From NCBI GenBank assembly GCA_044892525.1, contig CM097885.1, positions 31,312,001-31,376,000 of the forward strand: a stretch of 64,000 bases of DNA, given 5' to 3'. The notes below the pieces were generated by a model. The model saw nothing but the letters and a program-made list of their open reading frames with translations, did not search any database and was not told the DNA's origin. Both the position numbers and the translations under genes were made by a program. The DNA is from Schmidtea polychroa. Taxonomy: Eukaryota. Below are positions 1,749-24,933 of the stretch, piece by piece. Numbering within the stretch: position 1 is the first letter of the stretch; every line of letters begins with the position of its first letter.

Positions 1749-3582
1749 GATACCCAAGATAGTGTATATCAATTCAATATTTCATAAAAAGGGTGTGTTA
1801 ATTATTGCATACCCGACCTATACTCTACCAGTCCGTATTTTCTAGAATAGAGCAAGTGAAGTTCATATTTTCTATATACATGTCGTCTATTTCACAAAAC
1901 CAAGTTGCACGATAATGTACTTCGATAACATATTTCATAACCTCGCTATTACGACTGGTTGATGTGTTCCGTGCCAAGACGGAGACTCTCAATTTTCAGG
2001 TTCATAATATGTAGAGGGTACCGTTTAGACCTAAGGCCATGCGAAAACACCTTCAACAAATTGATACTTTGCACTCTCAATCGATGTAAGATCGATCGGA
2101 GATGCAAGTCTTGAAAATCCAGGTCAAGCAACAAGGGACTCAGGATAACCGAACCTTGATCGACCAATACCTAGTTGAACAGATAGAAAATGATTTTCCC
2201 ACTCAATCACGGAACCCAAATCCGCGAACTACTATACTTCTTCCAGTCCCAAACAACTGTCAATCAAGCGACAGGCGGAAAGGGGCCAATAACTCCTGAA
2301 TTATTCCTGCATTCTGCTCATGATAATTGATATAAGAGTTCGTGTATAGCAGGAATAAAAATGGTGTGCTCCGTGTTGTGTTCGTTGTTTCCTTGTATGA
2401 GTAAAAGATTTCCTTAACCCACATTATATTATAGGAGATAATACACCCTACTCTAAATTTCATGGGTTTTTTTAAATTATTAGAGCATAGAACAAGGGGG
2501 ACCTAAGAGAATTCAGACACAGGCCTTCTATCGCAGTCTGCAAACCTATTCCAGTGCTTGGTGATTATAGTGTACAGAAGTACGCTCACTTTTCCCGAGT
2601 ATTCGCCGACACATTACCAGCGTTGATTGCTCAACGGGAGCCGAATAGTGAAGTAAGCAGTTGTATCTTGGGTTGCGTCAGAAACCACACGAAAGAGTAG
2701 AATGTGGATTACCTGCGACTCACCCATACGTACACATTTTGCCCCATATTCCATAATCGCGACAAATACTTTTCTGATCGTCACTGTCTTAGTTTTATTC
2801 ACATTCTAAGGCCATAGAAAACTTTGTTGATCTAACTTATTAATAAAAAGAAAACACCGTCAAAGTTTCAATTCTGCAATGTAAGTTCATTGTGTCATGG
2901 TTGTCGAAATTGTCAGAAATGAAAATTAAATATATATATCAAAATTTGGTTTTGTTTAAATCACATAATAAGTTTTATTTCGAAAAGTTAATTATTTTCT
3001 ATTTTAACTATAATTATTTTTAATTTAATAATTTTCCGATAACAAAATTACTCATTTCATTTCTACATAACAATTTTGATATTTTTTCCCTCGCAATAAA
3101 TTATCTTATACAAACAAAAGCTGTTACACAATTCCTGATTTGTTCTTTTTATATTGTATCAGTAGCAAGTTTAATTATTAAATCTTTTTTGGTAATCATT
3201 AAAAATAATAGTTAATAGAATATAATATAGTGAACATTTGTGATTGATTAGATAATTTCTGGCTCATATAAATTCTTTAATTAATTACAGTCATTCAAAC
3301 AAAGGTAGAAAAAGTAAAAAACAAAACTTATGATGCTGACTTGAAGATAAACGTCAAATTTTAGTATATATAGTTACATAAATTTACATAAATTGTCCAG
3401 AAATAAAAGTTAAATACACAAAAATTGTAATGTTATTTAAAAAATACGAATAAATTGATTGATACCATCAATTATTGAGCACTAAACTTGACAGGACGCG
3501 GTTATATCTTAATTTTTTAGAAAGTCCAGTAACAAGACGGAGGCAAATAAGTTTAAAGTTTTCATTTTTTAGACGACTGATG

Positions 3583-4580
3583 AGTAGTAAGATGTGTCAC
3601 CTCCAGGACATGTCACCTCCAGGACACATATATATAAGTAGGTCAAGTTAAAATTAAGTAGATCAAGTTAAAATTATGTAGGTCACGACTATATAGGTAT
3701 TAAAATATGTAGGTCAAGTTACTTTAAATATATGTTACCTCCAGGACACTATATAAATAAATAAGTCAAATTAAGTAGGTCACGACTATATAGTTTATAA
3801 AAAATATGTAGGTCAAGTTATTTTTAACATGTATCCCTATAATATATACATCATTCAAAAGATATTTGAGAGTAGAGTACAATGATCATACCTTCAAAGG
3901 TGTATGGTGAATCCCTAACCTTCAAAAGGTGCAAAACCCTCGAATTTTTTCAAACTCTATAATACATGTCATTCAAAAGGTAATTGAGATGTGAGTATGA
4001 TGGTCATACAATCAAAGGTGTATGGTGAGTCCTTCACCTTCAAAGGGTCAAAAAATTTCGAATTTTTTCAAACTTTATAATATATATACATCATTCAAAA
4101 GGTATTTGAGAGTAGAGTGTGATGGTCAAACCTTCAAAGATGTATGGTGAGTCCTTACCCTCAAGTGTCAAAAACTTTGATTTTTATTCAAACTGTAAAT
4201 TGATCATTTCAACAAATCTTTCAATCCCCAAAATAAATTTCCCAACTCAAAAATTTCCCAAATTTTAAAAATTCCCAAAAACAATTTTCCCAACTCAAAT
4301 TTTTTCAAAAATTAAAAAGTCCTAAAAATGAAATTCCCCAAATTTCCCAACTCAAAATTTTTCAAATTTTAAAAAGTTTTCAAAACTATTTTCCCAAATT
4401 TTCCAACTAAATAGTAAAAGAATGTTTTACAATTTTTTTTTTTTCCTCGAATACATCAAACCAAAAATTTAACAAGGTTCGTCACACAAATCTAATTTTG
4501 AAATCAAACAAATGAATTTAATAAAAATTAAAATCATCGACATACACAACAGCCGTTCGCCCGCCCGCCCCGAAGGGGCT
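3583..4580 (+). repeat. Left terminal inverted repeat of Polinton 1
   Basis: Reverse complement of 18701-19719. Differences seen by eye: one substitution near 4323, homopolymer length (T12 vs A15) and an 18-nt expansion of the GC repeat on the right. Confidence 0.96.
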
Positions 4581-4659
4581 GGCGCGGTAGTTTGTAAATT
4601 TGGTTTAGTTTGAATATTATTTTGAGTATTAATAACAAAGGTAAAGAAATAAATGTTTA

Positions 4660-5217
4660 TTAAATGTATATAGTATGATACTCATTAATATACATTGAAC
4701 ATGCTTTACATTTGCGAACATTTGAATCATGGCATTTAGAACATACAATTACATGTCCGCAAGGTAAAAACAAAACCGATACTTGATTTTCTTTACAAAT
4801 GTAACAAGTTAAATACATTTTCCTACCATCATTGAGTTTTTTCCTTAGCTTATTTTCAATCAATTCGGATTTCGATATCCATTCATAAATCAATCTACTA
4901 CTATATCCTGGTTCCAGCCTTAAATCCATACAATTCCAAAAGCATTCATTCAATGAATCATTATCTACTATTGCTTTGTCTAAATGCATCAAATAAATCG
5001 ATAACTTCAAAATGCATTCATTGTAATTAAATAAATCAATCAAATATCCAATGGAGGAATGTTTGAAAATTTCTAAAATTTTTATGGTTTCCTTTTCAGT
5101 GAGAGTATCATAATTGTTCATAAAATCTTCAACGGGGCAGTTTAAAAACTTGAATGATCTCGTGGTCATCAGTAATTTCTTAATAAATTTATGAAAATAC
5201 TTATATTCTGCACACAT
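4660..5217 (-). CDS. Accessory protein with C-terminal IAP/MDM2-type RING finger (putative E3 ubiquitin ligase); no BIR motif seen
   Basis: C-terminus CYICKENQVSVLFLPCGHVIVCSKC...CKAC..I...HTIYI fits the C3HC4 RING of IAPs, including the hydrophobic tail. Confidence 0.85.
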   Translation of the reverse strand: MCAEYKYFHKFIKKLLMTTRSFKFLNCPVEDFMNNYDTLTEKETIKILEIFKHSSIGYLIDLFNYNECILKLSIYLMHLDKAIVDNDSLNECFWNCMDLRLEPGYSSRLIYEWISKSELIENKLRKKLNDGRKMYLTCYICKENQVSVLFLPCGHVIVCSKCHDSNVRKCKACSMYINEYHTIYI

Positions 5218-5580
5218 TTATAAGAGATACATTAAAACAACTCATTTATTAAACAAGAAAATAATTTAAAATCAATAATGGTAATTTTAAGGATTATCTT
5301 CGATAGATTTTATTGAATAATGGTTCATTAAAAAGGTCTTGAAGAGCTCTATCCAATGGTTATATATTTGAAGATATAATGTTTGTGCACAATATAGTAA
5401 GTATTATTATTTTTATTATTATTTTTATTAACAAACTACATTCTAATAAAATACTTTTATACATCAAATTATTAAAAAAAAAAAAAAAAAAAAAAAAACC
5501 GATAATTATAAAACGAAAAAGAGACTTTACAATAATTTCTATTTTACAAAAAATCAAACAAGTCCGATCACAGAATTAAA

Positions 5581-8500
5581 TTAATCTTGTAGATGTTGAT
5601 TGATGAGATCGGGATCTGCTCCTGATTGAATATCATTATCGTCATTATCAATGACATCAACCCCTAAATAATGACCATATGCAAAACTAGAGTTTTTCTC
5701 TACCCAAGCTCTTTTATCATCATGATTAGTTAAAGCAATCTTTGAGTTTTTAAAGGTAAAAAGCTGATGATTTCGGGTTCCTATTCTAGTCTGAGGTACA
5801 GAAATAACTGTGTTGTTGTTGTAACAGTCTAAATAAGATTGATGTTTTATATCTGTACCTGGTAATTTTACGCCCTTAGCTCTCATAGTAGATTTATTTC
5901 CTAAAAGACTGTAGCACTTTGGTCGCAAGAAAACCCACTCACTATATCCTACACCCTTACTCTCATCCTTAAACTTTCCTATAACTGAGTCGAGTCTCCT
6001 AGAATATAAAGGATGAGAGGGATCATAATTTGAGGTGTCTAACAAGTCATCCGAAATCATCGCTGGCAAAAGAACGTCAAGCTTTACATTTTTGACCTCT
6101 AAGAAGAAACTATCGGTATCACCCGCAACTATATTTATATCACAGTTAAACTGACTCCTATATTTTGATAATTATATGTACTGTAATTGATACATCCTTA
6201 GTTTGGATAAATCCAGCACTGATTGTCCGATGTAGCTGGGTCTATCCAAACATATAGACTCCTTATTGAGATGTACACCAAAAAGATCATCATCAATTTT
6301 GATGGTTTTTCTAAATGATGGTTTTGATGAATATGTAATTAATTTTTCCGCGGAATTACATAGTCGTAAATTTAATCTCTTCTTAAGGTTTTCAACGGAT
6401 TTACCGTACAAGCTATTATTATACAATTTGAATAAATCTCTGTACAGTTCACTGCTTGCTTCAGCTCTTAGCTGTGTATTTTTATTTATATAATTTTTAA
6501 AAATCGGTGCTTGCTTGAATTTTGTAGCTCTATGGATGTGTACAACTTTGGCACCAAGAGACAAATAAAGCTTGAGAAGCCTCCAATGAAGAACATGGTT
6601 CTTCTTTGGCCAATGCGTGAGCATCAACTTTCGAACCAGGCGGGCACATTTTCTCAGGAGCAAGAGGAAAGTCATTTAAGAAATCATGAAAAATTTCTGG
6701 AATATCTATATCCACTTCTATGGTATAACCATAGGGAAGGATTTCAATGTCAGCATTCATGCACTCAAGCAATACATCATTCAATCCATCATACACCCAA
6801 GTGAAATCAGCAAAAGGAAGATTTTGGCTAAGAGCCCAACCATACAGATTATTTATATCAATATATAATAATTCTGTATTATCAGAAGCAGCAACGTAAT
6901 GTTTGTTAACAAATGTTAACCCACCACGTATTCCTCCTTCGTAAAAATTGAACATTTCCATGTCCTGTAAAAGTTCTATAGGCTCAGTTAATGTCATAAG
7001 CGCTGAGGCCCATGACATACCCGGAATACCATAAAAGTTTAGAGGTTCTAGACCATTGTATGCAATGGCCTTGGCACGAAATTGTTGGAAATAGTCCGCA
7101 AGGAGGAATACATCCAATTTTTGATAAGTTAACATATAGTCAGCCAATTTAGTACAACGTTGTTGAGTCCAAATAAGTTGAGCCTTAGCATACTCATCTT
7201 CAGTAACACCAGACCAAATAGGAGGCAATTCATAAGTGGTTTCAAGTACATCCAAATCAGTCGCATAATCATAAGGAAATATGGCTTTAGCATCTATTAT
7301 TAACCTATCAAAAACCGACGAAGTCAAAGGAAGATCAGTTAGAGTTTTTACAGCCTTAGCCAAAGAACAATTAACAAATTGTATGCTGTCGATAAAACGA
7401 ACAGCTAATTTTTTAATGTGAACAATCATCGAGATAAATTTCTCTGTGCTTGTGGGTATTATATTCAAATTCCAAGAAGGAAAACCATTGAGACCATATT
7501 TTAAAATATGGTGTAAGTCGTAGCCTCGTAAATTATGAAATACAATCGGCAGCTGTTTATAAATTCTGCGAGCCATATTACATTTCCTACAGGCTGCACC
7601 GAGATAATTACCAGTAAAATGGTCATGATCTCGAACAGCAAGGGATAAAACCTTCTTGCAAAGATAGCAGTTCCTACAAGATTTGAATTGTCGTTCCTCA
7701 GCAAAAGTCATAGGTCCTAACCGTTTTTTCCCTTCAAGCTCATAATAAGGTAGGACAATTGTGACAGCAATTTCCTCTACTTTTTTAAGAAATTGAGGTA
7801 TACAATCAAGACCATAAAACTCGTAATACGATTTTCTATTGTTAAGATTATTTATTAATAAAAGACCTGCTGAAATAGGTAAATGTATTTGATGATGTTT
7901 AACATCTTTAGGTAAAACCGATTCAAAATCGGCATAAATAACAAAGGGTGGGGTGATTCTCTTTGAATGATTTTGAAACTCTAAATATTTATTTTCGGGT
8001 AAAGTGTAAAGGGTTGTACCCGTTTGATTTTTACTGCATAGGGCCACATGTTTAGTGAAAGCATTGTCTAATCGAAAACCGTTAAGACAATGTGGGCACC
8101 ATTTGCATCTTATTTGAATACTACAGTCATTATTACGATGGCAGTTCATTAAACGTGTAATGTTGGTCACTGCGGTGTAATGATAATTATCCTTATTTTC
8201 CAAGAGTAATAAATAAATTCGAGTACCGATAGTAACCGTTGATCTGTGAATTATACTTAAGTGGGGGTGTTTAAAAACATAGTCATTAGGAACCTGATCA
8301 TCATCAACTATCACAGTAGGGGTATAAGCCAGAACATTTATGGCAAGATTTAAGTCTAAATTTTTCTTTTCGAATTTAGGTATATTACACAATTTCATCG
8401 GACAATCCGTGACTTCATTGTAATTAAGAATATTTAAAAGATTTTCATATTTTGAAACTCTTTCAGGGTGGCTACCTATTTCATCTTTTTTCAAGAGCGC

Positions 8501-9660
8501 GAGAATACTATAAAGGAAACACTTATGATCCTTATTTTTAACATTAATAATTGCTCCTTTAGATTTCAAATCTGCGGGTGTACGAATGTAACTATGACCA
8601 GATAGGCGACAAATAGGAGCAAATTTAGTCAGAATGAAATCAATCTCTAAGATATTAATTACTCTCCAGCCACTACCTAAATAGGTAAACTTTTCAATTT
8701 TTTCGTTTAACTTATTAACTCCCTCAATTAAAAAGTTATCCGAAAAGATCTCGGCGTTATTTGAAAAGTAGTTGTCACGGATTTCCCCATCTTTTTCAAA
8801 TCTTATAAGAATAGCGAATTGAATTTTGACGCTACCCATGTTATTTATTTCAGATGTTAACTTTTCAGTGATTTTATCCGTTATTATAATTTTAATTAAT
8901 TGTGAATCGGTAATATTAAATCGAATAGTTCGAATGGCGCCATTTAAATTTGATTCTATTATCGGCTCAATCGCTAAAGATGATCCACCTATTTGATTTA
9001 TAGTATTTATAGTATTATCATTATTTATATTTTCATTTATAGCATTTATAGTATCAATATTATCATTTATAATATCATGATTTATAGTATATTTAATATT
9101 ATTACATTCGTCATCACTGAGTAGAATGACTTCATTTTTAATAATTTCGTCGTCACTGATCTCAATAACTTCAGTTTTTATAATTTTATTTTTAATTTTA
9201 GACACCCTATGTTCAGCAGGTCTTTTGTTAGATTTCTTTTTTGTGTTATTATTTAAAATATTTACAATTTCAATGTTATTCTTATTTATTATTTTAAACA
9301 GTTCTTGTTTATTTGTTTTGAAAGAATTTAAGTGCTGAGAATGTTGACTATAAAATTCCTTATACCTTACACTCTGGGAAGTTTTGCATATGGGGCAAAT
9401 AAAAAAGTTGATGCCATTAAAAGGTTGGCGATAATATTTCTTCATATTTTTGTGGCATTTATTGTCATGACCCATAGACGAATTACAATATTTAGGATAA
9501 AATTTGCCTAATAAAAGTTAAATAATTATTTATTGAATGAAAATGTATTATTTATTTAATAATAATAATAATAATAATAAATGTAATTTAATCTTTCATT
9601 TAAAATTTGTCTATAATATTATCAACTATAAAATAATTAGTTAATGTTAAATAATGCTAA

Positions 9661-9743
<83 letters not shown>

Positions 9744-10373
9744 TACTACTATTACAATTACTATTATAATTATTACTATTACAATTACTATTTTAATGAT
9801 AACTGAAATAATTTACATAAAGTTATATTTACATTATATTTACATAAAATCTATATTATTATTAAGTTATTAATTAATTAAAAACTATATATTAATAAAA
9901 TGAAACATACATTTTGATTCGTTATTCGAAACTGAGTCCCCAATAGGGATGGGAGCATTCAAATTATACGCAACGGAGGTATCCACTACTGCGGCATTTA
10001 TTATTGGAAAATTCTTGTTATGAGAAACAGAAGATTCTAAAATGTTAATGGTAATACAATTTTAATTAAACTAATAAATTACCATTTTGGAATATGTTTG
10101 AAATATCTAATATGTCGTCATTTTCGGTAATTGCGGCCCAATCACCAAAATAATTGTCTAAATAATAAAGATAATAATAATAATTAAAGTATTTATAATA
10201 ATTATAAATATACCATTTCCATCATTTCCAGAACCTAATCGCCTATTGAAGACTGACGAGTTAACGGTACGAGTTTCTAATTGTAAATTTAATTATTTAA
10301 TATAAATAAATAAATAAAAATCCTTACCATTTCTCGAAAGAACCACATTGATTTTAGTATTAATTGATGACAT
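5581..10373 (-). pseudogene. Protein-primed DNA polymerase B (5 exons: 10373-10328, 10276-10214, 10157-10083, 10036-9911, 9507-5581); frameshift ~6624-6631 and in-frame TAA at 6172-6174
   Basis: Motifs: vOTU-like NKDHKCFLYS...HYTAV; ExoI YADFES; endonuclease-VII-like CYLC..RDHDHFTG..CRKCN; ExoII FHNLRGYD; ExoIII YQKLDV; PolA YIDINNLYG; PolB KLYNNSLYGK; PolC AGDTDS (read in frame after the TAA). Joins ORF-track pieces 6530-9475, 6172-6675 and 5581-6069. About 1414 aa if repaired. The family call is firmer than the 5' exon model. Confidence 0.93.
9662..9795. repeat. (ATT)n microsatellite inside predicted pPolB intron 4 (9508-9910)
   Basis: Long ATT run degenerating into ACT/ACAATT variants. 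Confidence 0.9.
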
Positions 10374-10537
10374 TTTAAAATTGTAATAAAATAATTATGA
10401 TGAAATTTGTATTACAATTGTTTATAACGTGATAATATGCCTTTGTTAATCATGCACGGAGCATGCACCGTTCATGACGGACTTTGTTATTATTGTAATA
10501 ATATAAAACATAATAATAATTATAAAAATAATAAAAC

Positions 10538-10575
<38 letters not shown>

Positions 10576-10626
10576 ACATAATAATAATTATAAAATAATA
10601 AAAACACATTTTTATAAAAACATTTA

Positions 10627-11030
10627 TTATTTAATAGACATAAGCCATCCTAAACAATGTTGTCCGCACGTACGAGTTAAAGGGTGTTGATACATTGTTT
10701 TATTATATACAATAGGTTTGCCCATTGTTTGTAGTTTCGAAACCAATAAAGCAGGATAATAGAAACCCATAGGATCGAATACATGTATCTTATCTGGTTT
10801 CATATAGATTGCAATCCAATGCTCTCCGCCGAGATGAGATGAATGGGTATTGACGATTATGGCTTGATTATTTTTCAAAAATGGTATTTTATCGAGAGGA
10901 AAAACTCCTAAAAATTCATTTCCTAATATTTGTTTTCCAATTCGATTAACCTGAACAGAACTATTTTAATAAATTAAACAGTATAAAAAACAACTTACTC
11001 CATGACAACTTTCTGTATTTCTGTATACAT
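10627..11030 (-). CDS. Adenain-like cysteine (maturation) protease, 2 exons (11030-10999, 10960-10627)
   Basis: FLGVFPLD...IIVNT...GEHWIA...FDPMG...YQHPLTRTCGQHC (His/Asp/Gln/Cys). Removing a 38-nt intron GTAAGT...AAAATAG gives MYTEIQKVVMDSVQVNRIG...; ATG at 11030 directly follows the MCP stop (alternative ATG at 11003). Confidence 0.92.
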
Positions 11031-12254
11031 TTATACCAGAACGGTTCTATTTGCAGTAATTTGAACTTCATTTTCAAATACTCCATATATTATAACATGC
11101 ACAGGTTCTGTAATAGCTTTTGCAAACTTTATATCTAATCGTAAATTTCCATTTTGAGGTAATTGACTCTGATTCAAATCAAAATCTGGGGCCAAAACAA
11201 ATGTAAAGAATGGATATTTGGATTTGAATTCTTCAAGAGTTATGCCGCAATTCAAATTTTTATCTAAATATCCCATATTTCTAACAATACTCTGCATATA
11301 TGTAGCACAGTAATTGTCACTATCGAAATCTTGAGTATATGTTTCTCGATAATCAGTATTTTTCGACAAAGTTAGAGATGTAACACCAAAGGTTTTGAAA
11401 ATTGAGCTGGAGGCACTATATAAACCATTATATTGTGCTTCACCTTGAAATGTTACCAGAATAAAGTTTGGCATTCTTCTATCTCCAAATATTTGTTCCT
11501 TATAGAAGGAAGAAGCACCTTTGGCTATTGCAAATGAAACAATTTCTTTTGTTTTCAGAGGATAGATTGCATGCTTAGAATTAAGACCCAACTGATGACC
11601 TGCTAATACCGACGGATCAACTCGAACTCTTCTTACTAGTAATTTTGCATCAACTAATTGACATATTGGTTGACCAGCACCACTAGTTAATGATAAAGAA
11701 GAATCGGTTCTTTTCAGTCTAATGTGTACATTGACTCCTGGAAGTAAATATTTTGGTTGATCCATAAAATCGAGTTGTAATGATGAACACATGGTGAAAA
11801 TCTTTGAGCCTTTAATCCATTTTTTCCGTTCGTCATCACTTGCTGCATAACCCATAGGAGTAAGACATGTATTTTTGGTGTCGGTATTATAATTTAAAAT
11901 AGTTTCTATTATCGCCTTGTGGATATATGTATTGTTGCCACCTTCAATCTTGATATTATTAAATCCAAGAATAGCATCTTTAAAAAGTGTATGAAACAAA
12001 AAATTATTAGGTATTGTAGCATCAGCATCACCCAAAGCCTTTTTATCTTTATCTATAACCTTGATTTGAACAGTCAATAAAGTATCATTCAAATCTAAAT
12101 ATTCTGTTTGAGAACCATTGATGTAAAATTCTACATCATTTCTACTATCGGTAATTGAATTCATAGGAAAAACTTCCTCAAATGCCCCAAATTCTATTAC
12201 AGCCTGGGGCGATGGTCTATCAAATATGCATAATTCAGATTTACCACAAATCAT
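11031..12254 (-). CDS. Major capsid protein (double jelly-roll, Polinton PY/hexon type)
   Basis: N-terminal CGKSELCIF...EVFP...VEFYING...YLDLNDTLL..QIKV and C-terminal FVLAPD...GNLRLDIKFAKA..VIIYGVFENEVQI match animal Polinton MCPs; intact 407 aa. Confidence 0.93.
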   Translation of the reverse strand: MICGKSELCIFDRPSPQAVIEFGAFEEVFPMNSITDSRNDVEFYINGSQTEYLDLNDTLLTVQIKVIDKDKKALGDADATIPNNFLFHTLFKDAILGFNNIKIEGGNNTYIHKAIIETILNYNTDTKNTCLTPMGYAASDDERKKWIKGSKIFTMCSSLQLDFMDQPKYLLPGVNVHIRLKRTDSSLSLTSGAGQPICQLVDAKLLVRRVRVDPSVLAGHQLGLNSKHAIYPLKTKEIVSFAIAKGASSFYKEQIFGDRRMPNFILVTFQGEAQYNGLYSASSSIFKTFGVTSLTLSKNTDYRETYTQDFDSDNYCATYMQSIVRNMGYLDKNLNCGITLEEFKSKYPFFTFVLAPDFDLNQSQLPQNGNLRLDIKFAKAITEPVHVIIYGVFENEVQITANRTVLV

Positions 12255-12619
12255 TTTGCAAATATAGTTCCATGTCCTTTCATTCGTTTGTTTATACGTG
12301 ATATTCCATGTCTTTTACGTTTTGGAGCTGGAGCTGGAGCTGGAGGTTTTTCTTTTTGAAACATACCAGCAACCCCGGGTAAAACTTTCCCTAATTCAGC
12401 TAAAGCATTTGATTTTAGAGATGGTAATATTTTCTGTTCATTCATAATAACATCTTTTGCAGTTTTCATACCAAAACTACCAATACGTTTAAGAATAGGC
12501 AATGCAAATCTACCAATTGTTCTCAACCATCCCGATCCGTACTGTTTACCAATAAAATATGGTAATTCACCGCCAGATTGGCTATCACTATACATACTAA
12601 TAATATCAGAATTAGCCAT
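12251..12619 (-). CDS. Virion core/membrane-active protein (Polinton protein with Q-x-G-G / Q-x-G-x-G motifs, functionally pVI-like)
   Basis: SQSGGELPYFIGKQYGSG followed by an amphipathic segment WLRTIGRFALPILKRIG and a basic C-terminus; sits between penton and MCP with overlapping start/stop codons. Confidence 0.75.
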   Translation of the reverse strand: MANSDIISMYSDSQSGGELPYFIGKQYGSGWLRTIGRFALPILKRIGSFGMKTAKDVIMNEQKILPSLKSNALAELGKVLPGVAGMFQKEKPPAPAPAPKRKRHGISRINKRMKGHGTIFAK

Positions 12620-13679
12620 CTACTTTACGAAAATGTAATGTCAAATGAGTTTTTGAACCTTTTGGAAAGTTTATAAGTTTTCCACTATCATCACGAATAT
12701 TTATTTCTATATTGTTTATACATGAACTTGCTATTGGTAAATACATGGGATTATCGATATTTATATTGACAACTTCATCATGTTCATATTTTCCAATCCA
12801 TACCGATTTCAAAAGAGGAACACTGGAATCACCAACAATTATGGGTTCGATAATGTTAGTATATATGAACATTTGTTGATGATGTTCTAGTATTCTTGGT
12901 TTGCGTATACCAGTCGATTTTTCTCTATATTTTTGCTTATCTAATCCAAGTGAATTTGCCAAATTTTTATCAAATGTAACTTCGCAAATATCCTCATTCA
13001 AACTGAAGGTAAACATCAAATCTTTCACAATTTCCAAATTTTTAAATATGTGTGAACAATTGAACTTTAAATATTTAAGTAATACATCAAGTTTATCAAA
13101 ATATAATTCATCAGCAAAGGTGAATGATTCTTCAACTTCATCATTATACGACACAGATATTTTTATTTCTTCTTTCACTATACTGTTTGCTTCAAATAGA
13201 TTAAAACGTAATAAATACTCGGTCTCCATAACAATATTTTTCAGCTTATTGCAACCCATTCGTTTGGCATCTTCAATAGTTTCGAATGTTATTGTAAATG
13301 GTTTAAAATCACAACTGATATTTAATCCATCCTTGTAAAATATATAGCAATGCGAATCTAATATTTGGTTCGGAATATGATATGTTTTATCATAATTACT
13401 AATAATAAAGATACCGCTACATGTTTTCACAATATTCCTTTTGAAATCAATCTTACATTGACTATAAAATGGGAATGTGTTGTACACGAATGTAAAATCT
13501 TGCAGTGCAACTTCCCAGTCACCATTTAGAGAAATCGGATTCTGGAGATTGACCATAAATTTACTGGCTTGATTGTCTGGATGAATTAATGGGCAACTAT
13601 TGCTCGGTAAAATAGTATAAAAATTCACTTTACTAGGTCCTTTGCTGATATCCATGACGGGTTTTGATAACCATGCCAT
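12612..13679 (-). CDS. Minor capsid protein (penton, single jelly-roll); start may be Met at 13655
   Basis: FYTILPSNS...PDN..SKF.VNL..PISLNGDWEVAL and MFIYTNIIEP..VGDS.VPLL...PMYLP....INNIEINIRDDSG..I.F....LTLHFRK are typical Polinton penton motifs. Confidence 0.9.
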   Translation of the reverse strand: MAWLSKPVMDISKGPSKVNFYTILPSNSCPLIHPDNQASKFMVNLQNPISLNGDWEVALQDFTFVYNTFPFYSQCKIDFKRNIVKTCSGIFIISNYDKTYHIPNQILDSHCYIFYKDGLNISCDFKPFTITFETIEDAKRMGCNKLKNIVMETEYLLRFNLFEANSIVKEEIKISVSYNDEVEESFTFADELYFDKLDVLLKYLKFNCSHIFKNLEIVKDLMFTFSLNEDICEVTFDKNLANSLGLDKQKYREKSTGIRKPRILEHHQQMFIYTNIIEPIIVGDSSVPLLKSVWIGKYEHDEVVNINIDNPMYLPIASSCINNIEINIRDDSGKLINFPKGSKTHLTLHFRKVDG

Positions 13680-14254
13680 TTGACATAGTATTGTTTATCC
13701 TTGCCGACCTTTTTAGTTTTCAATATTTTTTGAATTCTAAATACCTTTGGAGGAGGAATGACTTGTAATTCCTGCTCATAAAATTTCCCTTGTACAATAT
13801 TATTATCACTGTCTTTGATGACATACATTACAGGATTCTGTTTAGTATTTATTTTTGAAATTACAAAGACTTCATCACTCCAATTTGTATCAAAATTTTT
13901 AATAAATGGTGATGCACTAATTTTACTAATTCTAACACGATCACCGACTTTATATTTAGGTTTTGCAATTTTTACAGATTTCTTAGAATAGAATGTTTTT
14001 GATGTAATATCAACCGGTCTCAATCCATTCAGTCCTCGATGTGATGAATGATTATAACTTGTTATTATTTTCGGTAAAGCATTTACCCATTTTTTATTAC
14101 CTTGATGCACGAATAATTTCTTTAATCTATCTCTCAGTGTTCGATTAAATCTTTCAACATGGGCAGCTTTGTATTGAGAATGTACCGAGTAGTGATTTAT
14201 TTTCAGTTTATCGAGGATTTGCTTAACTTTGTTATTGTAGAATTCTTTACCTAA

Positions 14255-14319
<65 letters not shown>

Positions 14320-14707
14320 CCAAATCTGTTTGCAAGTTATTAGGATGTCCATCTTTAAATAAAATATTAATTGCCTTTGACATTTCATCTGCAGATTTTG
14401 CCTTGACTGGTATTGCTCGTGCAAACCTGCTGAATACATTAATACATGTTAAAATATATTTATTCCCATTGTTAATTTTCGAATACGGTATCATCTCCAT
14501 CAAATCCATTTGCCATAAATCGTCAATACCAAATGTTTTATATGCTCTTGTTGGAAATCTTTTCCGCATTGGTTTGTTCAAACTGTACGCAAGCTGATCT
14601 GATAACCACTTCTGGGTTTCTTTTTTCGAATTCGGAACTCTTTTCTTTAATTTTGCCACTCCACCGAAACCGGCTTCGTCTTCTGGGTTCGTCCAAATCT
14701 TCTCCAT
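13625..14707 (-). CDS. Retroviral-like DDE integrase with C-terminal chromodomain; 69-nt intron 14251-14319
   Basis: WQMDLMEM...LQTDLG|KEF...HVERFNRTL (D, D, E); KYKVGDRVRIS; GKFYEQELQ; chromo-like YYVKWHGY..PSWI. The poly-Ile run in the ORF track is GT(ATT)21TTAG. Confidence 0.95.
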
Positions 14708-14765
14708 TACAGCAAGAAGATTTAAAATTAAAATTTAAATTAGGTAATGAAGGATTAGCACCCAT
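14538..14765 (-). CDS. Putative small N-myristoylated protein overprinted on the integrase 5' end
   Basis: Starts 3 nt after the upstream stop; MGANPS fits MGxxxS; has a CC pair and basic PRRRSRFR. No homology recognised. Confidence 0.4.
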   Translation of the reverse strand: MGANPSLPNLNFNFKSSCCNGEDLDEPRRRSRFRWSGKIKEKSSEFEKRNPEVVIRSACVQFEQTNAEKISNKSI

Positions 14766-14768
14766 TGT

Positions 14769-15302
14769 TTATGATTGATTTCCTACAACTCCACCTAATA
14801 ATGATAATGCCAGAGGTATCAATGCACCAATAAATCCACCTTGTTGTTTATATATAATTTTCCTCATTTGCTTACGATTTTTATTATTTACTAATGATAA
14901 CAAAGGTTTCCTATGTTTGCTCAATAAATGCTTTTTTGATTTACTGATTTTAATTTTGCCTTTGACTACTTTAAGTATAATATTGAGTAAATCATCGACA
15001 ACAAAATTTGGGAATGATTGCAATATATTCATTCTTTTCATACTCGGGGCCTTTAACAATGCATTAAAAAATGGAAAACTGCGATGATTTTTAATTACTT
15101 TTTTACCGGCTTTACGGGTTTTACGGGTTTCACGTTTAGGTTTAGGATTTTTCGAAATAAGATTCATTGCAGAGAAATTTTCAGTTACAAGTTTTTTAGA
15201 TGGTGTATAACTAGTTGTTGGTGGAACCTTTGGAACTTTAATACTCTTTTTAATACTTTTTCTTAATTTCCTAATATTTTTCACCCTTGCTTTTAGAAAC
15301 AT
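14769..15302 (-). CDS. Basic DNA-binding core protein with C-terminal pX-like hydrophobic tail
   Basis: Very K/R-rich 177 aa; ends KQQGG-FIGALIPLALSLLGG, resembling the GGFLPALIP motif of adenovirus pX and Polinton core proteins. Confidence 0.75.
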   Translation of the reverse strand: MFLKARVKNIRKLRKSIKKSIKVPKVPPTTSYTPSKKLVTENFSAMNLISKNPKPKRETRKTRKAGKKVIKNHRSFPFFNALLKAPSMKRMNILQSFPNFVVDDLLNIILKVVKGKIKISKSKKHLLSKHRKPLLSLVNNKNRKQMRKIIYKQQGGFIGALIPLALSLLGGVVGNQS

Positions 15303-15320
15303 TATTATTCATAGAGGTTT

Positions 15321-15947
15321 TCAACTTTGTTTATAAACCATGGCACCTTTTGGGTTGAAAATATCTGTTTTTACTCGTAAATCATCGGGACATTGTTGTG
15401 TGAAATCAAGAAATATATATCCATGAGGTATTTTTGTAGCATCTTGAAATGCACTGATAAGAAAATTACGATTGTTAGGGTATGCTTGACGTGCAAGAAA
15501 ATCAATCACTGTTGCATCTCTAGGATTCTTGAAAATAACTAAATATTGTACATTTAAATTACGTGTTCGATGTGCACCACCTTGATGAAATAGATTTTGA
15601 GTTATAAAAATAACAGTTACACCAACGTGTCTACTGATTTTAGTAAATAAATTATTGAAATTCTTTTCTTTATTAGCTTCTTGATACAAGTCATCAATAA
15701 TTATGACATCCCCCTTCTTTAGTCTACTGGACCAATTTTTATCAAATCCCTCTACTATTTTCATATTTTTCAATTTACAGAAACTTGATTGAGTCAATCC
15801 GTGTTCTTGATCAGCACCTCGATGCCAATAAATTTTGTTAAATTTTGATTCAAGTAAATGTGATTTTAGTAATTTGCAAACAAACAAAGTTTTGCCGCTA
15901 CCACTTGGTCCGACTATTTGATATACAGCATCATTTCTTAGTTCCAT
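15321..15947 (-). CDS. A32/FtsK-like genome packaging ATPase
   Basis: Walker A GPSGSGKT, Walker B IIIDD, FTKISRH..VIFITQN, R.N..YLVIFKNPRD. Confidence 0.95.
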   Translation of the reverse strand: MELRNDAVYQIVGPSGSGKTLFVCKLLKSHLLESKFNKIYWHRGADQEHGLTQSSFCKLKNMKIVEGFDKNWSSRLKKGDVIIIDDLYQEANKEKNFNNLFTKISRHVGVTVIFITQNLFHQGGAHRTRNLNVQYLVIFKNPRDATVIDFLARQAYPNNRNFLISAFQDATKIPHGYIFLDFTQQCPDDLRVKTDIFNPKGAMVYKQS

Positions 15948-16062
15948 TTTTAATATTTATTTAAAAATTAATTTTGTTTATATCGTAAAGAATAAATTGA
16001 TTTAATTACTCTATAATATAATATATATATATATACTTGATTTTTATAAATATTCAGTAGAA
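15948..16062. promoter_or_regulatory. Putative bidirectional promoter between the structural gene block and the TBP-like gene
   Basis: 115-nt divergent intergenic region with TATAATATAATATATATATATATA (~16012-16035), TATAAATA and an Inr-like TCAGT before the ATG at 16063. Confidence 0.5.
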
Positions 16063-16575
16063 ATGTTGACAAATATTAATTATAGAGGTCGTGTGTCTTT
16101 GGAAACTGTTGGTATGATGAATTTCCCCAAGTGTAAACCACAACAATATGTCGACAAAACTGGAAAATATACTATTATATTTTTCAAAAATGGTAAATGT
16201 CGTATAATGGGTTGTAAGAAGCCTATCGAATTCAAGAATTTGCAATATAATATCAAAGATATTCAAGTTCAAAGTCTTACTATAGCTACCAAGGTTGAAC
16301 AATCTATTAATTTGAATAATTTAGCAAAGTTATTAGATGGAGATTGTATATATGAGCCTGAATTATTTCCCGCTCTGCGTTATACAAAATATAATCCACT
16401 ATGTGTAAATATATTTTCGAGTGGTAAAATAGTTGTACTAGGTATTAAAAATTTAGATTTTCATACTATTGTTGAAGGAATTATAAACGATGTAAAGGAT
16501 TTGATTGGATCTTTAACAATTTCTTCAAATATAAGTAATGAGGATTTGCTTGAATATTTATTCAACAATGATTGA
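16063..16575 (+). CDS. Divergent TATA-binding protein (TBP) homologue
   Basis: Two-repeat TBP pattern: LTNINY / TIIFFKNGKCRIMGCK (repeat 1) and IQVQSLT..INLNNLA..IYEPELFPALRY...VNIFSSGKIVVLGIK (repeat 2; cf. cellular YEPELFPGLIY...LIFVSGKIVLTGAK). Confidence 0.9.
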   Translation: MLTNINYRGRVSLETVGMMNFPKCKPQQYVDKTGKYTIIFFKNGKCRIMGCKKPIEFKNLQYNIKDIQVQSLTIATKVEQSINLNNLAKLLDGDCIYEPELFPALRYTKYNPLCVNIFSSGKIVVLGIKNLDFHTIVEGIINDVKDLIGSLTISSNISNEDLLEYLFNND

Positions 16576-16936
16576 ACATGAAGGTAACTGTTTTTATTTT
16601 AAATTTATTGATTTTTGTTTAGAAACTATACTAAAAATTTTGATTGATAAAATTGAAGATTTTTATCCGAATTTGAACAATTCCTTAATGTATTGTGCTC
16701 CAGAAGTTGTGTTTTACAAAATTTATGAAATAACTGGAATAAATGTAATAGATTTAATTCATATGGATCATGCTACGATTACATGTTATACCGATGATGT
16801 TGAAAATTGTGATTTTTGTAAAAATAATATGCAGAATACTTGTGGGGATGATAGTTGTACATGTTTTGTAAATCTACAGAAACGAGAAATAATTCATGCA
16901 TTACTTGTGAAATTGCGAAAAAATGTATTGTTGTAA
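16568..16936 (+). CDS. Cys/His-rich hypothetical protein (possible Zn-binding)
   Basis: ATG at 16568 overlaps the TBP-like stop (ATGATTGA); cluster H..C..CDFC..C....CTC; AATAAA at the stop. Confidence 0.6.
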   Translation: MIEHEGNCFYFKFIDFCLETILKILIDKIEDFYPNLNNSLMYCAPEVVFYKIYEITGINVIDLIHMDHATITCYTDDVENCDFCKNNMQNTCGDDSCTCFVNLQKREIIHALLVKLRKNVLL

Positions 16937-17138
16937 TAAAATATAATTATATTTGTTTTGTGATAACCTTAACTAACCTATAATATTTCTTTGTGTACAA
17001 TAAATCATTTCAGACTTTGTTATTTAGCATAAAATGAACTAGTTGATCACGTTTTGATCATGCCTGTCACTTGAAACTTGTTTACAATGAAATTAGTATA
17101 AAATATCTGGTTCAAATTATTAAATATTATAACTACAA

Positions 17139-17730
17139 ATGGATAATCAAATTACAGGTTTGTTGTCGTTTACACATATTCCATTTATTAGTTTTTTAAT
17201 CTAGGAGTTTTGAAGAGAAAAAATGCAGATGCCGCTCAGGAATTCGGAAAACGGAAATTTAAAGAAGCGACATTATCCTCGGAAACCTTGGTCAATGTTC
17301 GAGTGGATACAAAAAAGCCAGTCGAATTCATGCAATACAAACTAAATTATTTGTATTGTCCAATTTCCTATACATTTAAGGTAAGTTTCTATAAATTATT
17401 TTGGATTTTATTATTATTATTTATTGTTAGGAACCAGTAACTCTGGAAAAATGTTTCTACAATGTGAGACTTTCCAAAATCAAGTTTCATGACAAGATGC
17501 TATTGGGACAATTATTTCAGAGGATCAATGAAAATATTGAATTTGATGATGAAGATATGTTCATTAGAAACGATTTGGATATGATTCCCAATGGTGGTAA
17601 GATGAGCAAAATAACCTGCATGGTTACCATATTAATTCAAGGGTATAATGTAAGCAGAGACCGAATCAAACCAATTTGGAAAATTATAAAAGCCGAAGAT
17701 AAGTTTGAAGAGGAACATTGTTCATGTTAA
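17139..17730 (+). CDS. Hypothetical protein, 3 exons (17139-17157, 17205-17380, 17431-17730), 164 aa; possible OB-fold ssDNA-binding protein
   Basis: 47-nt and 50-nt GT-AG introns join ORF-track pieces 17210 and 17464 in frame; TATAAAA about 40 nt upstream of the ATG. The SSB function is inferred only from the C-terminal beta pattern. Confidence 0.7.
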
Positions 17731-17802
17731 ATTTATTTAATACATCTTTATTAGTGTTTTGGTGTTTTTAAATCATTGAAAATAACTAAAGTTTCAAATT
17801 TA

Positions 17803-18188
17803 TTAATCTTCAATACAATCTCTTTTCATTATATTTTCAACAATATGATCAATACAATTAGTAGAAACAATAGATTCATCTTCTTTAGATTCATTTGGTA
17901 ATTTATCTGTTGTAGAATTCTCAATACATGACTTAAGTTCTTCACTAGGCAAATCAGTATATTCATCTTCTTGCTGGGAAATATTTTCAGATTCATATGA
18001 CATATCATCTTCATTAATTTCATCGTCTGAATACGGCCATTTTAATTTCTCTGGAACATTCATAAATTCTCTAATTTTTACATTAGATATTTCCTCTAAT
18101 TTTTCAATCAAAAAGTTGATTATATATGCTAAATAAAAAAAAAAAGAATTAATAAACATAAAATTCATATTTTACCTTTTTCCGACAT
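17803..18188 (-). CDS. Acidic hypothetical protein, 2 exons (18188-18176, 18128-17803), 112 aa
   Basis: ATG TCG GAA AAA G|gtaaaa...tttttatttag|CA TAT gives MSEKAYIINFLIEKL...; the poly-T 'FFFY' in the ORF track is the intron pyrimidine tract; D/E-rich body. Confidence 0.65.
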
Positions 18189-18700
18189 GGTTGAAAATAA
18201 TTAAAATGAAAAAATAATTATGTTTATACTATTATTCAAAAGCAACAAGATGATCGATAGATAGATTATAAGAAAATTAGATATTTCAACACGATACATA
18301 TAATAAAAAGACAAGCAAACTTGCAATGATATTTAACGTTTCAGTTTTTACATTTTTTTTTTTAATATTTATTTCAATTATTTCGACAACACAAAAAAAG
18401 TCAATTTTTTTTTTTACTAATTAATTTTCAGCCTAACCTACAACTTTTCACAAAAATCCAAAAAAAAAATGAGACCTTTTTAATGAACCATTATTCAATA
18501 TAATCTATCGAAGGTAATCCTTAAAATTCCAAATTTAAAATGTTCGCAAATGTAAAGCATGTTCAATGTATATTAATGAGTATCATAATATAAACATTTA
18601 TTTCTTTACCTTTGTTATTAATACTTTGAATATTGTAAATAATAAAACTATGTATCAAATAATAATATTCAAAATAAACCAAATTTACAAACTACCACCC

Positions 18701-19719
18701 AGCCCCTTCGGGGCGGGCGGCGGGCGGCGGGCGGGCGGGCGAACGGCTGTTGTGTATGTCGATGATTTTAATTTTTATTAAATTCATTTGTTTGATTTCA
18801 AAATTAGATTTGTGTGACGAACCTTGTTAAATTTTTGGTTTGATGTATTCGAGGAAAAAAAAAAAAAAATTGTAAAACATTCTTTTACTATTTAGTTGGA
18901 AAATTTGGGAAAATAGTTTTGAAAACTTTTTAAAATTTGAAAAATTTTGAGTTGGGAAATTTGGGGAATTTCATTTTTGGGACTTTTTAATTTTTGAAAA
19001 AATTTGAGTTGGGAAAATTGTTTTTGGGAATTTTTAAAATTTGGGAAATTTTTGAGTTGGGAAATTTATTTTGGGGATTGAAAGATTTGTTGAAATGATC
19101 AATTTACAGTTTGAATAAAAATCAAAGTTTTTGACACTTGAGGGTAAGGACTCACCATACATCTTTGAAGGTTTGACCATCACACTCTACTCTCAAATAC
19201 CTTTTGAATGATGTATATATATTATAAAGTTTGAAAAAATTCGAAATTTTTTGACCCTTTGAAGGTGAAGGACTCACCATACACCTTTGATTGTATGACC
19301 ATCATACTCACATCTCAATTACCTTTTGAATGACATGTATTATAGAGTTTGAAAAAATTCGAGGGTTTTGCACCTTTTGAAGGTTAGGGATTCACCATAC
19401 ACCTTTGAAGGTATGATCATTGTACTCTACTCTCAAATATCTTTTGAATGATGTATATATTATAGGGATACATGTTAAAAATAACTTGACCTACATATTT
19501 TTTATAAACTATATAGTCGTGACCTACTTAATTTGACTTATTTATTTATATAGTGTCCTGGAGGTAACATATATTTAAAGTAACTTGACCTACATATTTT
19601 AATACCTATATAGTCGTGACCTACATAATTTTAACTTGATCTACTTAATTTTAACTTGACCTACTTATATATATGTGTCCTGGAGGTGACATGTCCTGGA
19701 GGTGACACATCTTACTACT
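18701..19719 (-). repeat. Right terminal inverted repeat of Polinton 1
   Basis: Reverse complement of 3583-4580; ends CTTACTACT followed by the TSD. Confidence 0.96.
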
Positions 19720-19899
19720 CTGATGCAACTAATTTATTTAAGATATTCCAAATCGGAACATATAATTGTAATAATATTTATAGTGCTTCCAAATGCATAA
19801 TCTAGAAAAGGAAGTACTATTATTATTGATATATTATTGATATAGAACACATGCATACAATACTTTACTTAAAAAAATAAAATTTTATTTTATAATACA

Positions 19900-22335: not shown

Positions 22336-24933
22336 TTAAGTAATAATACCAAACGAGTGATTTTGTGTGCGACAATTTGTTATATTCTTCATATTCGATT
22401 TTTTTTCTGTTCTCCTGGAAAAAATGTAAACAAAATAATTTAAAAAGGGTATTAATATGTCAATTAATAGAAATTAATTTTACAATACATGTAGTTATTG
22501 TAAATTACACCTGCTTAAATGTAAAAACAATATTTTTAATGGAAGTAAAATAAATATATAAGATAAGTAATTAATAGTTTACATGTATTGCTTCTATTTT
22601 TTATTATAAAAACTTCTTTCAATTTTCACCTCTGATTTTTTTTCAATTGATATTGTATTTATTAACAAATTGACTATGAATCAGTAAATATATCGATGCT
22701 TTTTTATATTCACGAATTTTCGGCACTCCCTTTTTCAAGTGATTTTTTAAAATTTAAATTCCGATTTTGACACGAGTTAAGTTTTTATAAAATAATTAAT
22801 TTACAAAAATAAATGATGACATAAAACAGATTTAACCTACCACTCCAGATAGATGAATTTTTCACTTATATGATTTTAATGTTATAAATAAAAACCCACT
22901 AAAGTGCAGGTCTGACTGTAGTGGTTATGGTTTAGGACACTGCATCAAAACACTTTACATTTTCTTTAGTGGTGGTTGGTATCATTAAATTGACTCACCA
23001 ATTTAATATATTTCATCTTTCTAGAAATTAATTTTAGTCAATTTTGAAATAGCATTCAGGTAAGATGTTTAATTTCAAGTATATATGAGATCATTATATA
23101 TGAGATCATATATATGAGATCATTATTCAAGTTCTTAAATATTACTTTTATTTAATTATTTATTTTTAATTAGTTTTCAGGTTTTTTAAGAATTTTATGA
23201 AATTTATTTTATAATTATTTTGATATAATGTAGGTCAGATATATTTTTAAATTATAATTAAATAATTAAATCAATTGCCAAAAATGTTTTTTTCTAAAAT
23301 ATTTCTAAAACAAATATCATAAGTTCTATTAAATATTAAACTTAATTTTAACTCAAAAATAATTCTTACAATTATATTTCGTCTTTTATATTTCGTTTCT
23401 ATAAAAATACATTTAAAAACATTTTCATCGATCATATGTTTCTAAAAAATGTCTAAAATAAAGTTATTATAGAAATGTATTTCAGCGGCGTATTTCTATA
23501 TATCGAAAGTCTGCATTTGTGTTTGTGTTTGTGTGCAGTATTTAATTTTTCTACCACTTTTAGATTTCTATAGTGTAAGGTGTATCTCATTGCACTATCA
23601 ATGAGACATCAGCGTGAAATCGAAGTAAGTATGCACTAATGCAAGATTATTGATTTTTCCTTATATTATAGGAAACGTATTTCAGTGGTTTTTGGTGTAG
23701 AATTACAGCTGGCTCTTATTTTGGGCATCACCCCAAAATTACTTGTGACATAGTCAATCTTATAGATCTGCACTTTGGTGGGTTATGTATAAATAATTAT
23801 TAAGTTTAGCTATAAAACGTGTCTTCATAATAACTAAATTGTATTCAAAAAGAATAACGAAAGGTAAATAAGTCCGTTAAAAACAGTGTTATCACCAGTC
23901 TCTGACTTGTTTGTTCAATTTTTAAACTGTATATAATGCAACTTATCAAATTTATTAGCTCATGAAAGCATTGAACTTTATTGAACTTTCAAACTGGTAT
24001 CCAAATAATTTTGAGATTTGGTCTCCTGATGTGCATTCCCCAATGGATATTGAAATTATATTTTTAATGAAAAGACAAAAGAAAGTCAGAACAATTTATT
24101 TTTCTAATTTTGGGAAACTAGGTCTTAATGAAAATTGATGTATTACAAGATAAAAACTCAAAAAATCAGCCAATAAATGTGAAAAAACAGCCGACATTTT
24201 TCAGCCTAATCTGGGTGAAAATTATATTTTTTACACTTTAAGACAAATGTACTTAATTTTAATAAACACGATTATAAATTACCGGTTCGACGTGTTTAGC
24301 GTACCATTTCTTTCTGAATTCCATATTACAGCTTTCAAAATACGAATCTGCAATAAATTGAGCGAATAAATATCTAATAATTACAAATATAAATAATTGT
24401 TTTTCCAAAAATTCCAATGAATTTGTTAGACTTTCTGTTATGATTTAGACATGCAAATCTGATCATTTAATAGTTTAATTTTCCATTTCTTTGGACAATA
24501 TTGTGTTATAGAATGTTATTTTAATCTCGCGCTTTTAAGTGTTAAAAAGGTTGTTCATTTTGTGAACCAGTTCCATCTTTGATCCATTTCCTTATACAAT
24601 TGTCTCACAAATGTCTAACATTGTAAAAACTTGTATTTTTTAATTTCTTTTGCAGTAGTATATAATGAGGACTCTAGCGCACTTTCAAGGTCATGGAATA
24701 TCAAGATTAAATATAGACCAATCCAATCATTTTTTTTATTTAATTTAATTACTTCCTTTTTTTTAATTTATTACTTTTTATTATATTTTTATTATTATTT
24801 GATTTTAATTAATACTTTTGTTAATTTTAAATTTATTACATTTATTAATTAATTATTTTATTATTATTTATTTTAATTTAATTACTTCTATTTAGTTATC
24901 TTATTATAATTTATTAATTAATTATTTTTATTA

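Follow-up and report, generated by a model that had tools for sequence, protein, structure and literature searches.

Among the closest described systems are the TBP mimics of the beta- and gamma-herpesviruses (KSHV ORF24 and its kin), which, according to the available part of PMC12529657, are associated with a variant late box, TATTWAA. For the TATA-binding protein (TBP) in general, the available sections of Ravarani 2020 (PMC7221094) describe the basic patch of helix H2 as the site for TFIIA, Mot1/BTAF1, TAF1 and Brf, and place the TFIIB contact on two Glu of the C-lobe, the same Glu that are used by Brf1/2. Closer to the element studied here, a TBP-like gene was labelled in at least one MELD virus in the Fig. 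5 legend of Starrett 2021 (PMC8502044), whose available text is silent on the function, spread or promoter box of this gene; the available part of its supplement, including the labels of Fig. S2, contained no TBP. The main texts of PMC10748475, PMC8097293, PMC11131425, PMC11161782 and 10.64898/2026.06.19.733378, as far as available, do not mention TATA or TBP, and in the available part of PMC10675990 mirusvirus-like elements are the only ones for which TATA-binding proteins are named. A lineage-wide TBP family with re-tuned surfaces and a matching box appears to be undescribed in the searchable literature, where we found no account of either the family or the box; Repbase or GenBank third-party annotation may exist. 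The novelty that an earlier note on this DNA had left to be checked was narrowed because the PMC8502044 legend already labels a TBP-like gene and because variant late boxes have already been described together with TBP mimics in herpesviruses (PMC12529657).

In this study, which was based on a window of 64,000 nucleotides (the whole stretch of DNA that was analysed) and on related loci from its own genome and from metagenomes, we attempted to establish what a TBP gene does in a Polinton. The reading that we favour, with some reserve, is that an early-made TBP reads the box YATAAACR and recruits host TFIIB and Pol II, beyond the reach of the host TBP regulators.

The element (Table 1) was assigned to the Polintons on its long terminal inverted repeats (TIRs), which start with AGT repeats, the end motif that is a defining mark of Polinton/Maverick termini, on a 6-bp target-site duplication, and on a protein-primed PolB, an RVE integrase (rve under the curated cut-off) and, by Pfam, an A32 ATPase and an adenain protease. 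Its terminal arms, one of 863 nt and one of 138 nt, are both 100% complementary. An imperfect inverted repeat continues beyond the perfect arms (18540-18730 against 4570-4720), and the 3' end of the RING gene is copied at the right end; in the terminal repeats (3583-4450), a 10-mer occurs five times and an 11-mer three times, besides tandem units of ~120 nt, and none of these is the box. The PolB of the copy in the window is broken into three ORF pieces, with a frame change at ~6530-6675 and a stop at ~6172, and in the integrase frame a triplet repeat at 14200-14300 is read as an Ile run and probably also includes an intron. Introns of the GT-AG type, ~50 nt long, were found in element genes (at 10998, 10327, 17381 and 18175 of the window); such short, spliceosome-type introns fit transcription by Pol II. 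On likeness and gene order, we take the ORF at 11031..12254 to be the major capsid protein (MCP) and that at 12612..13679 to be the minor capsid protein (mCP), while the 122-aa and 177-aa ORFs are presumably the genes named PZ/gasderminX-like and PW/cupiennin-like, respectively. The profile of the putative MCP matched the like-placed ORF of locus L126 at 9e-98, with no capsid match in Pfam, and a variant of the box, one base off, lies directly upstream of the putative mCP. The ssDNA-binding-like neighbour of the TBP gene (24 loci) gave only T7 gp2.5-type proteins in the top four rows of the structure comparison, at middling Z scores of 6.7-7.2, and a search of the ESM Atlas with this family returned no match. 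Related elements (L052, L058, L095-L120) carried genes for a ubiquitin-conjugating enzyme, a dual-specificity phosphatase, and PLA2-like, KilA-N and C2H2 proteins.

Table 1. Features of the Polinton element in the window (window positions)
Feature	Position	Strand	Basis or remark
Left target-site duplication, 6 bp CTGATG	3577..3582	+	
Polinton/Maverick element, 16,137 bp, long TIRs	3583..19719	.	ends AGTAGT / ACTACT
Right target-site duplication, 6 bp CTGATG	19720..19725	+	
RING-finger ORF, 185 aa	4660..5217	-	Pfam zf-C3HC4_3 4.5e-10
Protein-primed PolB	5581..9475	-	DNA_pol_B_2 1.2e-8
Box 53 nt before ATG 10373 (apparently spliced unnamed ORF)	10419..10426	-	start assigned after site seen
Adenain-type protease, main exon	10630..10965	-	Pfam Peptidase_C5 7.2e-7
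Putative MCP, 407 aa	11031..12254	-	no Pfam match above noise
122-aa conserved ORF	12251..12619	-	sequence family
Box inside 122-aa ORF, 42 nt before putative MCP gene	12289..12296	-	
Putative mCP, 355-aa ORF	12612..13679	-	gene order and likeness; no Pfam match
Box inside 355-aa ORF, 101 nt before 122-aa ORF	12713..12720	-	
RVE integrase with chromodomain	13625..14707	-	Pfam rve 1.4e-5 (under curated cut-off), Chromo 2.9e-4
Box with C at position 1, 66 nt before integrase ATG	14766..14773	-	
177-aa basic conserved ORF	14769..15302	-	homologues at 22 loci
Box 87 nt before small conserved ORF starting 14765	14845..14852	-	start assigned after site seen
A32-like packaging ATPase, 208 aa	15321..15947	-	Pfam Pox_A32 2.3e-7
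Box inside ATPase 3' end, 33 nt before 177-aa ORF	15328..15335	-	
Box, intergenic, 35 nt before ATPase ATG	15975..15982	-	-35 kept in 22/23 genome copies examined
TBP-fold gene, compact, 170 aa, head-to-head with packaging ATPase; without upstream box	16063..16575	+	
Box inside TBP 3' end, 56 nt before 132-aa ORF	16482..16489	+	
132-aa Cys-rich ORF overlapping TBP stop	16538..16936	+	unassigned
Spliced gene, conserved family, T7 gp2.5-like ssDNA-binding fold	17192..17730	+	predicted structure comparison
Acidic ORF	17803-18168	-	probable first exon from 18189
Box before acidic ORF	18221..18228	-	

Elsewhere in the window, a PolB remnant of another family was found at 26396-27163, in nested inverted repeats (24730-27894). 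Its matches in the own genome are mostly inverted pairs ~10 kb apart, dozens among 149 rows (for example C1:10206157 minus with C1:10216883 plus), which suggests palindromic elements with two PolB copies. The fragments at 39130-43462 resemble what we take to be two hAT-type transposases.

The 170-aa ORF, which has no internal stop, was matched by Pfam PF00352 (E 2.3e-17; 63 bits against a curated cut-off of 22.9), although this sequence match was confined to residues 66-131, which is the second repeat. All 35 sequences of solved structures that matched it at E<=0.01 contain TBP. The identity of the protein to solved TBPs is 22-26%. The AlphaFold2 model (mean pLDDT 93.8) found solved TBPs in Foldseek at a best E of 1.6e-9, and in the VIA overlay its residues 1-149 were placed on residues 164-337 of human TBP (Z 13.1, rmsd 2.7, 149 residues), while the nearest unrelated fold reached Z 6.7. 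The ESM Atlas also gave TBP-labelled clusters, with automatic labels and a recognition score under the usual bar. As modelled, the protein is a two-lobed TBP saddle in a single chain with both repeats; this agrees with the earlier note, which had described an intact ORF in a duplication-bounded element, with both repeats and no N-terminal extension, and a C-terminal tail of ~20 aa has to be added to that description.

The surfaces of this protein were compared in a 91-row family alignment, from which all of the conservation counts were taken; yeast positions follow Table 1 of PMC12529657, in its available part, and were mapped using our own alignment. Three of the four canonical intercalating Phe are kept (F41 91/91, F102 90/91, F118 91/91), while the fourth, at the F99 position in the replaced first stirrup, is K25 (Lys in 58/91), with F21 present in 84/91. 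The Asn pair N69/N159 is half retained, N4 being kept in 86/91 and the second position being Ser (S71) in 88/91. The C-lobe Glu pair for TFIIB is intact (E98 87/91, E100 91/91), its first Glu being lost in some more distant relatives, and the own genome has a host TFIIB with the contact Arg-Thr. In addition to N69, the yeast positions F116, L189, F190, P191, F207 and V213 are kept in the family, while six others were changed and then fixed: V71 to Asn (88/91), V122 to Arg (89/91), T124 to Met (91/91), N159 to Ser (88/91), V161 to Thr/Ser (90/91) and L205 to Asn (91/91). Both clades of the family, A and B, have the same set of substitutions (V71N, V122R, T124M, N159S, V161T, L205N). The near-invariance of the DNA-face residues (N6 88/91, R47 89/91, M49 91/91, N116 91/91) is as expected for a new specificity and not for decay.

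Repeat 1 is shortened, with an Asn-to-Phe spacing of mostly 35-36 residues (58/91) versus 46 in the host TBP exon. The canonical basic patch of helix H2 in lobe 1 is missing from the window ORF, where the spacer is 20 versus 33 residues. In host and plant-type TBP, the H2 region has 33 aa with 8-9 Lys/Arg; it is deleted in seven clade-A proteins including the window ORF (18-23 aa) and acidic in seven clade-B proteins (28-32 aa, 1-2 Lys/Arg, 3-7 Asp/Glu). The earlier note, which had read by eye the three Phe, the replaced and the intact stirrup, the short repeat 1 and the Ser for Asn, was right at each of these positions and missed the loss of H2.

The gene is widespread and well preserved. In its own genome (781 Mb), all 150 scored matches, drawn from 4076 first-look candidates (a figure that is not a copy number), were 99-100% identical and without an internal stop, and three further Polinton families (L122, L124, L125) carried TBPs that were 53-58% identical. 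The head-to-head layout of TBP and ATPase was found in 4/4 families examined in this genome, and when a TBP-less, capsid-bearing family was sought there, both further families that were fetched carried TBP. A protein search gave 107 relatives at E<=1e-3 (of 157 candidates), mostly of 144-165 aa, and a search with the TBP profile yielded 868 representatives at E<=1e-10, cellular TBPs among them. Among the best 80 of 184 confirmed metagenome matches, 37 loci had Polinton core genes and 43 had no core gene on the retrieved stretch; for those of at least 3 kb among these best 80, the proportion was 26/35. In IMG/VR, the TBP profile found one locus only, a giant-virus-like contig with a longer TBP, and the ATPase and capsid queries (single and aligned) found no loci.

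The dN/dS ratio was 0.05-0.50, with a median of 0.20, in all 25 pairs with a dS of 0.05-0.8 (of 3081 pairs), from which the Polinton TBP family is judged to be under purifying selection at a dN/dS of ~0.2; the absence or neutral decay in sister copies that the earlier note had named as a refutation was not borne out. The values for 678 distant pairs (median 0.43, up to 1.0) were not used, since in AT-rich DNA the synonymous sites become saturated, and the differences among near-identical copies in the own genome (7 non-synonymous versus 6 synonymous) are too few to show selection alone. In an unrooted tree of 43 TBP rows (29 Polinton-linked, P0161 and P0189, and 12 host, cellular and giant-virus rows), the Polinton-linked TBPs, together with P0161 and P0189, which have the family motif, were separated by a long branch (SH-aLRT 99) from the host, cellular and giant-virus TBPs. 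They split into two deep clades (support 97 and 96), and the ATPase tree had the same two clades (100/99 and 89/87), between which the ATPases are ~38% and the capsid proteins ~27% identical. Because of its spread, the purifying selection and the matching TBP and ATPase clades, the TBP gene is, as far as these comparisons reach, old in the Polinton lineage and not a recent capture.

The host genome also has a canonical TBP (L022/L123) and divergent TBP paralogues (L023, L024, L025/L026, L027/L030, L028/L031, L131, L132, L137), as well as more than one gene that its motifs mark as Brf1-like. Locus L135 (3682-4596) holds a divergent TFIIB-like gene of full length and without introns (304-aa frame, 33% to the near-host TFIIB) in which the contact Arg is kept and the Thr is replaced, and which accounts for 13/21 TFIIB matches in the own genome. 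It lies within a 7.9-kb tandem unit (C1 23.85-24.19 Mb, C3 38.2-39.1 Mb) that has a Polinton PolB fragment 1.9 kb from the TFIIB-like gene, possibly by chance.

In the search for a promoter signal, 120 nt before the first in-frame ATG were scanned for each gene family, with near-duplicates dropped at 60% anchored identity, and every word of 6-8 nt upstream of 92 genes (those for ATPase, integrase, protease and capsid proteins and genes linked to them) was scored against shuffles; the terms 'early' and 'late' are assigned here by gene function. The top word in these 92 dereplicated late-type genes was ATAAAC (83 versus 8.8 expected from the shuffles), and YATAAACR was found on the sense strand of 78/92 and on the antisense strand of 0/92; since the loci are related, these counts and the p-values overstate independence. 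The box was present before 24/26 ATPase, 11/12 putative MCP, 12/15 integrase, 16/18 177-aa, 6/6 122-aa, 7/11 putative mCP and 2/4 protease genes, and also before 9/11 PLA2 genes and 12/16 genes of one unnamed family. Before TBP genes it was found in 0/59 cases (sense strand), before the ssDNA-binding family in 2/19, before PolB in 1/4 and before three small families in 0/9, 0/6 and 0/9. It occurred in both clades (56/68 and 33/40), most often 30-45 nt from the ATG. Many boxes fall within the preceding gene, where they occur in either of two frames and can be up to ~100 nt before the start; where the box overlies the ATPase end, box-forming codons were used in 23/25 cases versus 50% expected, and the same codon test for the 177-aa gene was not significant (4/7). 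We conclude from these counts that the sense-strand box marks virion- and packaging-type genes and is absent before the TBP gene.

In the window element, 7/11 boxes had a listed ORF start no more than 120 nt away (against an expected 5.6%; p 5e-7, which is generous as the loci are related), or 9/11 when starts that were assigned afterwards are counted, with 2/11 lacking a nearby start; in the whole window the motif was at chance (22 versus 23.3 expected). The protease gene of this copy had no box in front, and no YATAAACR sites were found in the terminal repeats proper.

Five loci that had been picked by their ATPase alone (L126-L130) served as a control. L127, in which TBP is present, had the box in front of three genes (PLA2, 177-aa-like and integrase) and an ATAAAC core before its ATPase, while in L126 (11.8 kb, from PolB to the protease), L128, L129 and L130 no TBP was found by the profile search and the core genes were box-free. 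In L126, L128 and L129, the box preceded 0/13 starts and another TATA-like word preceded 9/13; these TATAR words (TATAAG, TATAAAG), 18-102 nt before the starts, are perhaps a late box of their own. This pattern fits a co-occurrence of the TBP gene and the box, in a small control of four partial contigs, three of them from one clade at 51-56% GC, in which a TBP gene may lie outside. The TATA-like words in the TBP-less loci mean that TATA-like late boxes may pre-date the element TBP or not need it.

On the reading that we favour, a minimal TBP would be made early from a box-free promoter, along with PolB and the ssDNA-binding protein, and its re-tuned saddle would recognise YATAAACR in front of every virion-type gene, those for packaging, capsid and integrase included, with an expected preference for YATAAACR over TATAAAAG. 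The intact Glu stirrup of the C-lobe would bring in host TFIIB and Pol II, while the loss of the basic N-lobe helix would exclude the protein from TFIID/TFIIIB and from contact with Mot1/BTAF1, TAF1 and TFIIA. We infer that the box is bound by the element TBP, that host TFIIB is used and that the gene classes follow each other in time as early and late. The lost Phe and the lost central Asn could speak against DNA reading, as they could mean weak or no DNA binding. The earlier note had proposed a promoter-specificity factor acting on a single late promoter of the element; the factor gains real but indirect support from the selection, the DNA-face changes, the Glu pair and the stranded box, but no single late promoter was found in 15948-16062, since almost all late-type genes are preceded by a box of their own, which in many cases lies within the gene upstream.

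It is unlikely, in our judgement, that a host factor (TBP/TFIID or Forkhead) reads the box while the element TBP serves as a decoy, titrating TFIIB or dampening host transcription in some other way. The word ATAAACA fits the Forkhead core, RTAAAYA, but the other Forkhead words are hardly used (GTAAACR 3/92; RTAAATA 9 sense versus 6 antisense) and the box is strictly one-stranded; the Forkhead reading was ranked low on these patterns. Host TBP may read TATAAACA because it is one base off the TATA consensus, given as TATAWAWR in the available part of PMC2396422, and the TBP-less loci have TATA-like words at like places (9/13). However, canonical TATA is not enriched (TATAAAA 3/92) and C at position 1 is common (18/33 clade-B boxes). 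A decoy would also agree with a TFIIB Glu pair that is the best-kept surface of a protein whose DNA face is altered, whereas the altered residues (N6, R47, M49, N116) are themselves near-invariant, and the dominant-negative mimic that the earlier note had offered as its alternative is the less likely reading.

The idea that the TBP reads the box with an unrecognised element-encoded partner or via Brf-type adaptors, instead of simply recruiting host TFIIB, seems to us distinctly improbable. According to the available part of PMC7221094, most viral TBPs occur together with a TFIIB-like protein of their own, and Brf1/2 rely on the same Glu; several ORFs beside the TBP gene carry no assigned function, and the own genome has a multi-copy divergent TFIIB-like gene. 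However, Pfam TFIIB matched 0 of the 101 Polinton ORFs (13, 15, 73), among which a very divergent or spliced copy could escape, while the host-side TFIIB-like control scored. Of the unnamed neighbours, only the ssDNA-binding family is common to both clades, the spliceosome-type introns point to Pol II, and the N-lobe patch that Brf1 needs is also gone. It is very improbable that the TBP is a repressor that keeps the virion genes off in integrated copies, or that it acts at the termini in replication or packaging: the conserved Glu pair (E98, E100) and the box-free terminal repeats argue against it, even though tight silencing of capsid genes would pay in a host genome with very many intact copies and a core promoter can be blocked by a protein bound there. 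The view that the gene is a host TBP, captured recently and drifting without function, is effectively refuted by the median dN/dS of 0.20, by the presence of the gene in two clades with such dissimilar ATPases and capsid proteins, and by the long branch (SH-aLRT 99) that splits the Polinton TBPs from the host TBP and its paralogues; the several divergent paralogues in the host genome and the 7 to 6 count among near-identical copies, too few alone, are what it has in its favour.

If the element TBP is such a switch, the late-gene logic of the herpesviruses would have been invented independently in a 16-kb element, and there would be evidence for a staged virus cycle in integrated animal Polintons, as well as a natural TBP/promoter pair that is orthogonal to that of the host. 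The broader claim, that the large and ancient Polinton lineage has a one-protein switch built on the smallest known viral TBP, with YATAAACR specificity, use of host TFIIB/Pol II and a shed regulator surface, may be as readily wrong as right. A named factor and an 8-bp box make it testable whether the Polintons of animals are true viruses that pass from an early to a late programme, and by what their capsid genes are switched on; the box would be a sequence rule that sorts uncharacterised Polinton genes into early and late. Moreover, the cellular, acidic-helix and helix-less TBPs are a natural experiment on the residues of TATA specificity and the need for the N-lobe helix, and the compact TBP with its own box could serve as an orthogonal transcription tool.

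Compared with the cellular TBP and TRF proteins, the Polinton TBP shares the two-lobed saddle, three Phe, the first Asn and the C-lobe EPE(L/I)FP stirrup; in contrast to them, it has lost the lobe-1 stirrup with its Phe, H1 is shortened, H2 is deleted or acidic and the second Asn is Ser. The Nucleocytoviricota usually encode their own polymerase. Their TBPs have likewise lost the N-lobe regulator patch (PMC7221094, available part; BFVD matches), but they mostly lose the TFIIB Glu as well (~40% kept) and are accompanied by an encoded TFIIB (PMC7221094), whereas the Polinton TBP keeps the pair (87/91 and 91/91) and no TFIIB was found on the element. With the Polintons, Mavericks, adintoviruses and MELD viruses, as described in the available part of PMC8502044, the element shares the full core gene set, with its capsid genes as putative members, the TIRs and the 6-bp target-site duplication. 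The likeness to herpesvirus ORF24, as far as the available description of that protein goes, lies in a virus-type TBP fold with polar DNA-face changes, the positions V122, T124, V161, L205 and T215 being altered in both, and in a variant TATA box before virion-type genes, which in the Polintons is a different box and known by sequence only; herpesvirus late genes use host Pol II, as would the Polinton genes in our proposal. However, ORF24, in the same description, has 752 aa with a Pol II-binding N-domain, an extra C-domain and additional DNA-binding capacity, needs five other viral factors (it works with ORF34) and is without the TFIIB Glu, while the Polinton TBP is a bare saddle of 150-170 aa with a short tail that keeps the Glu pair. 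The Polinton TBP probably works like ORF24 in its logic; it is of separate make and not a member of the ORF24 family.
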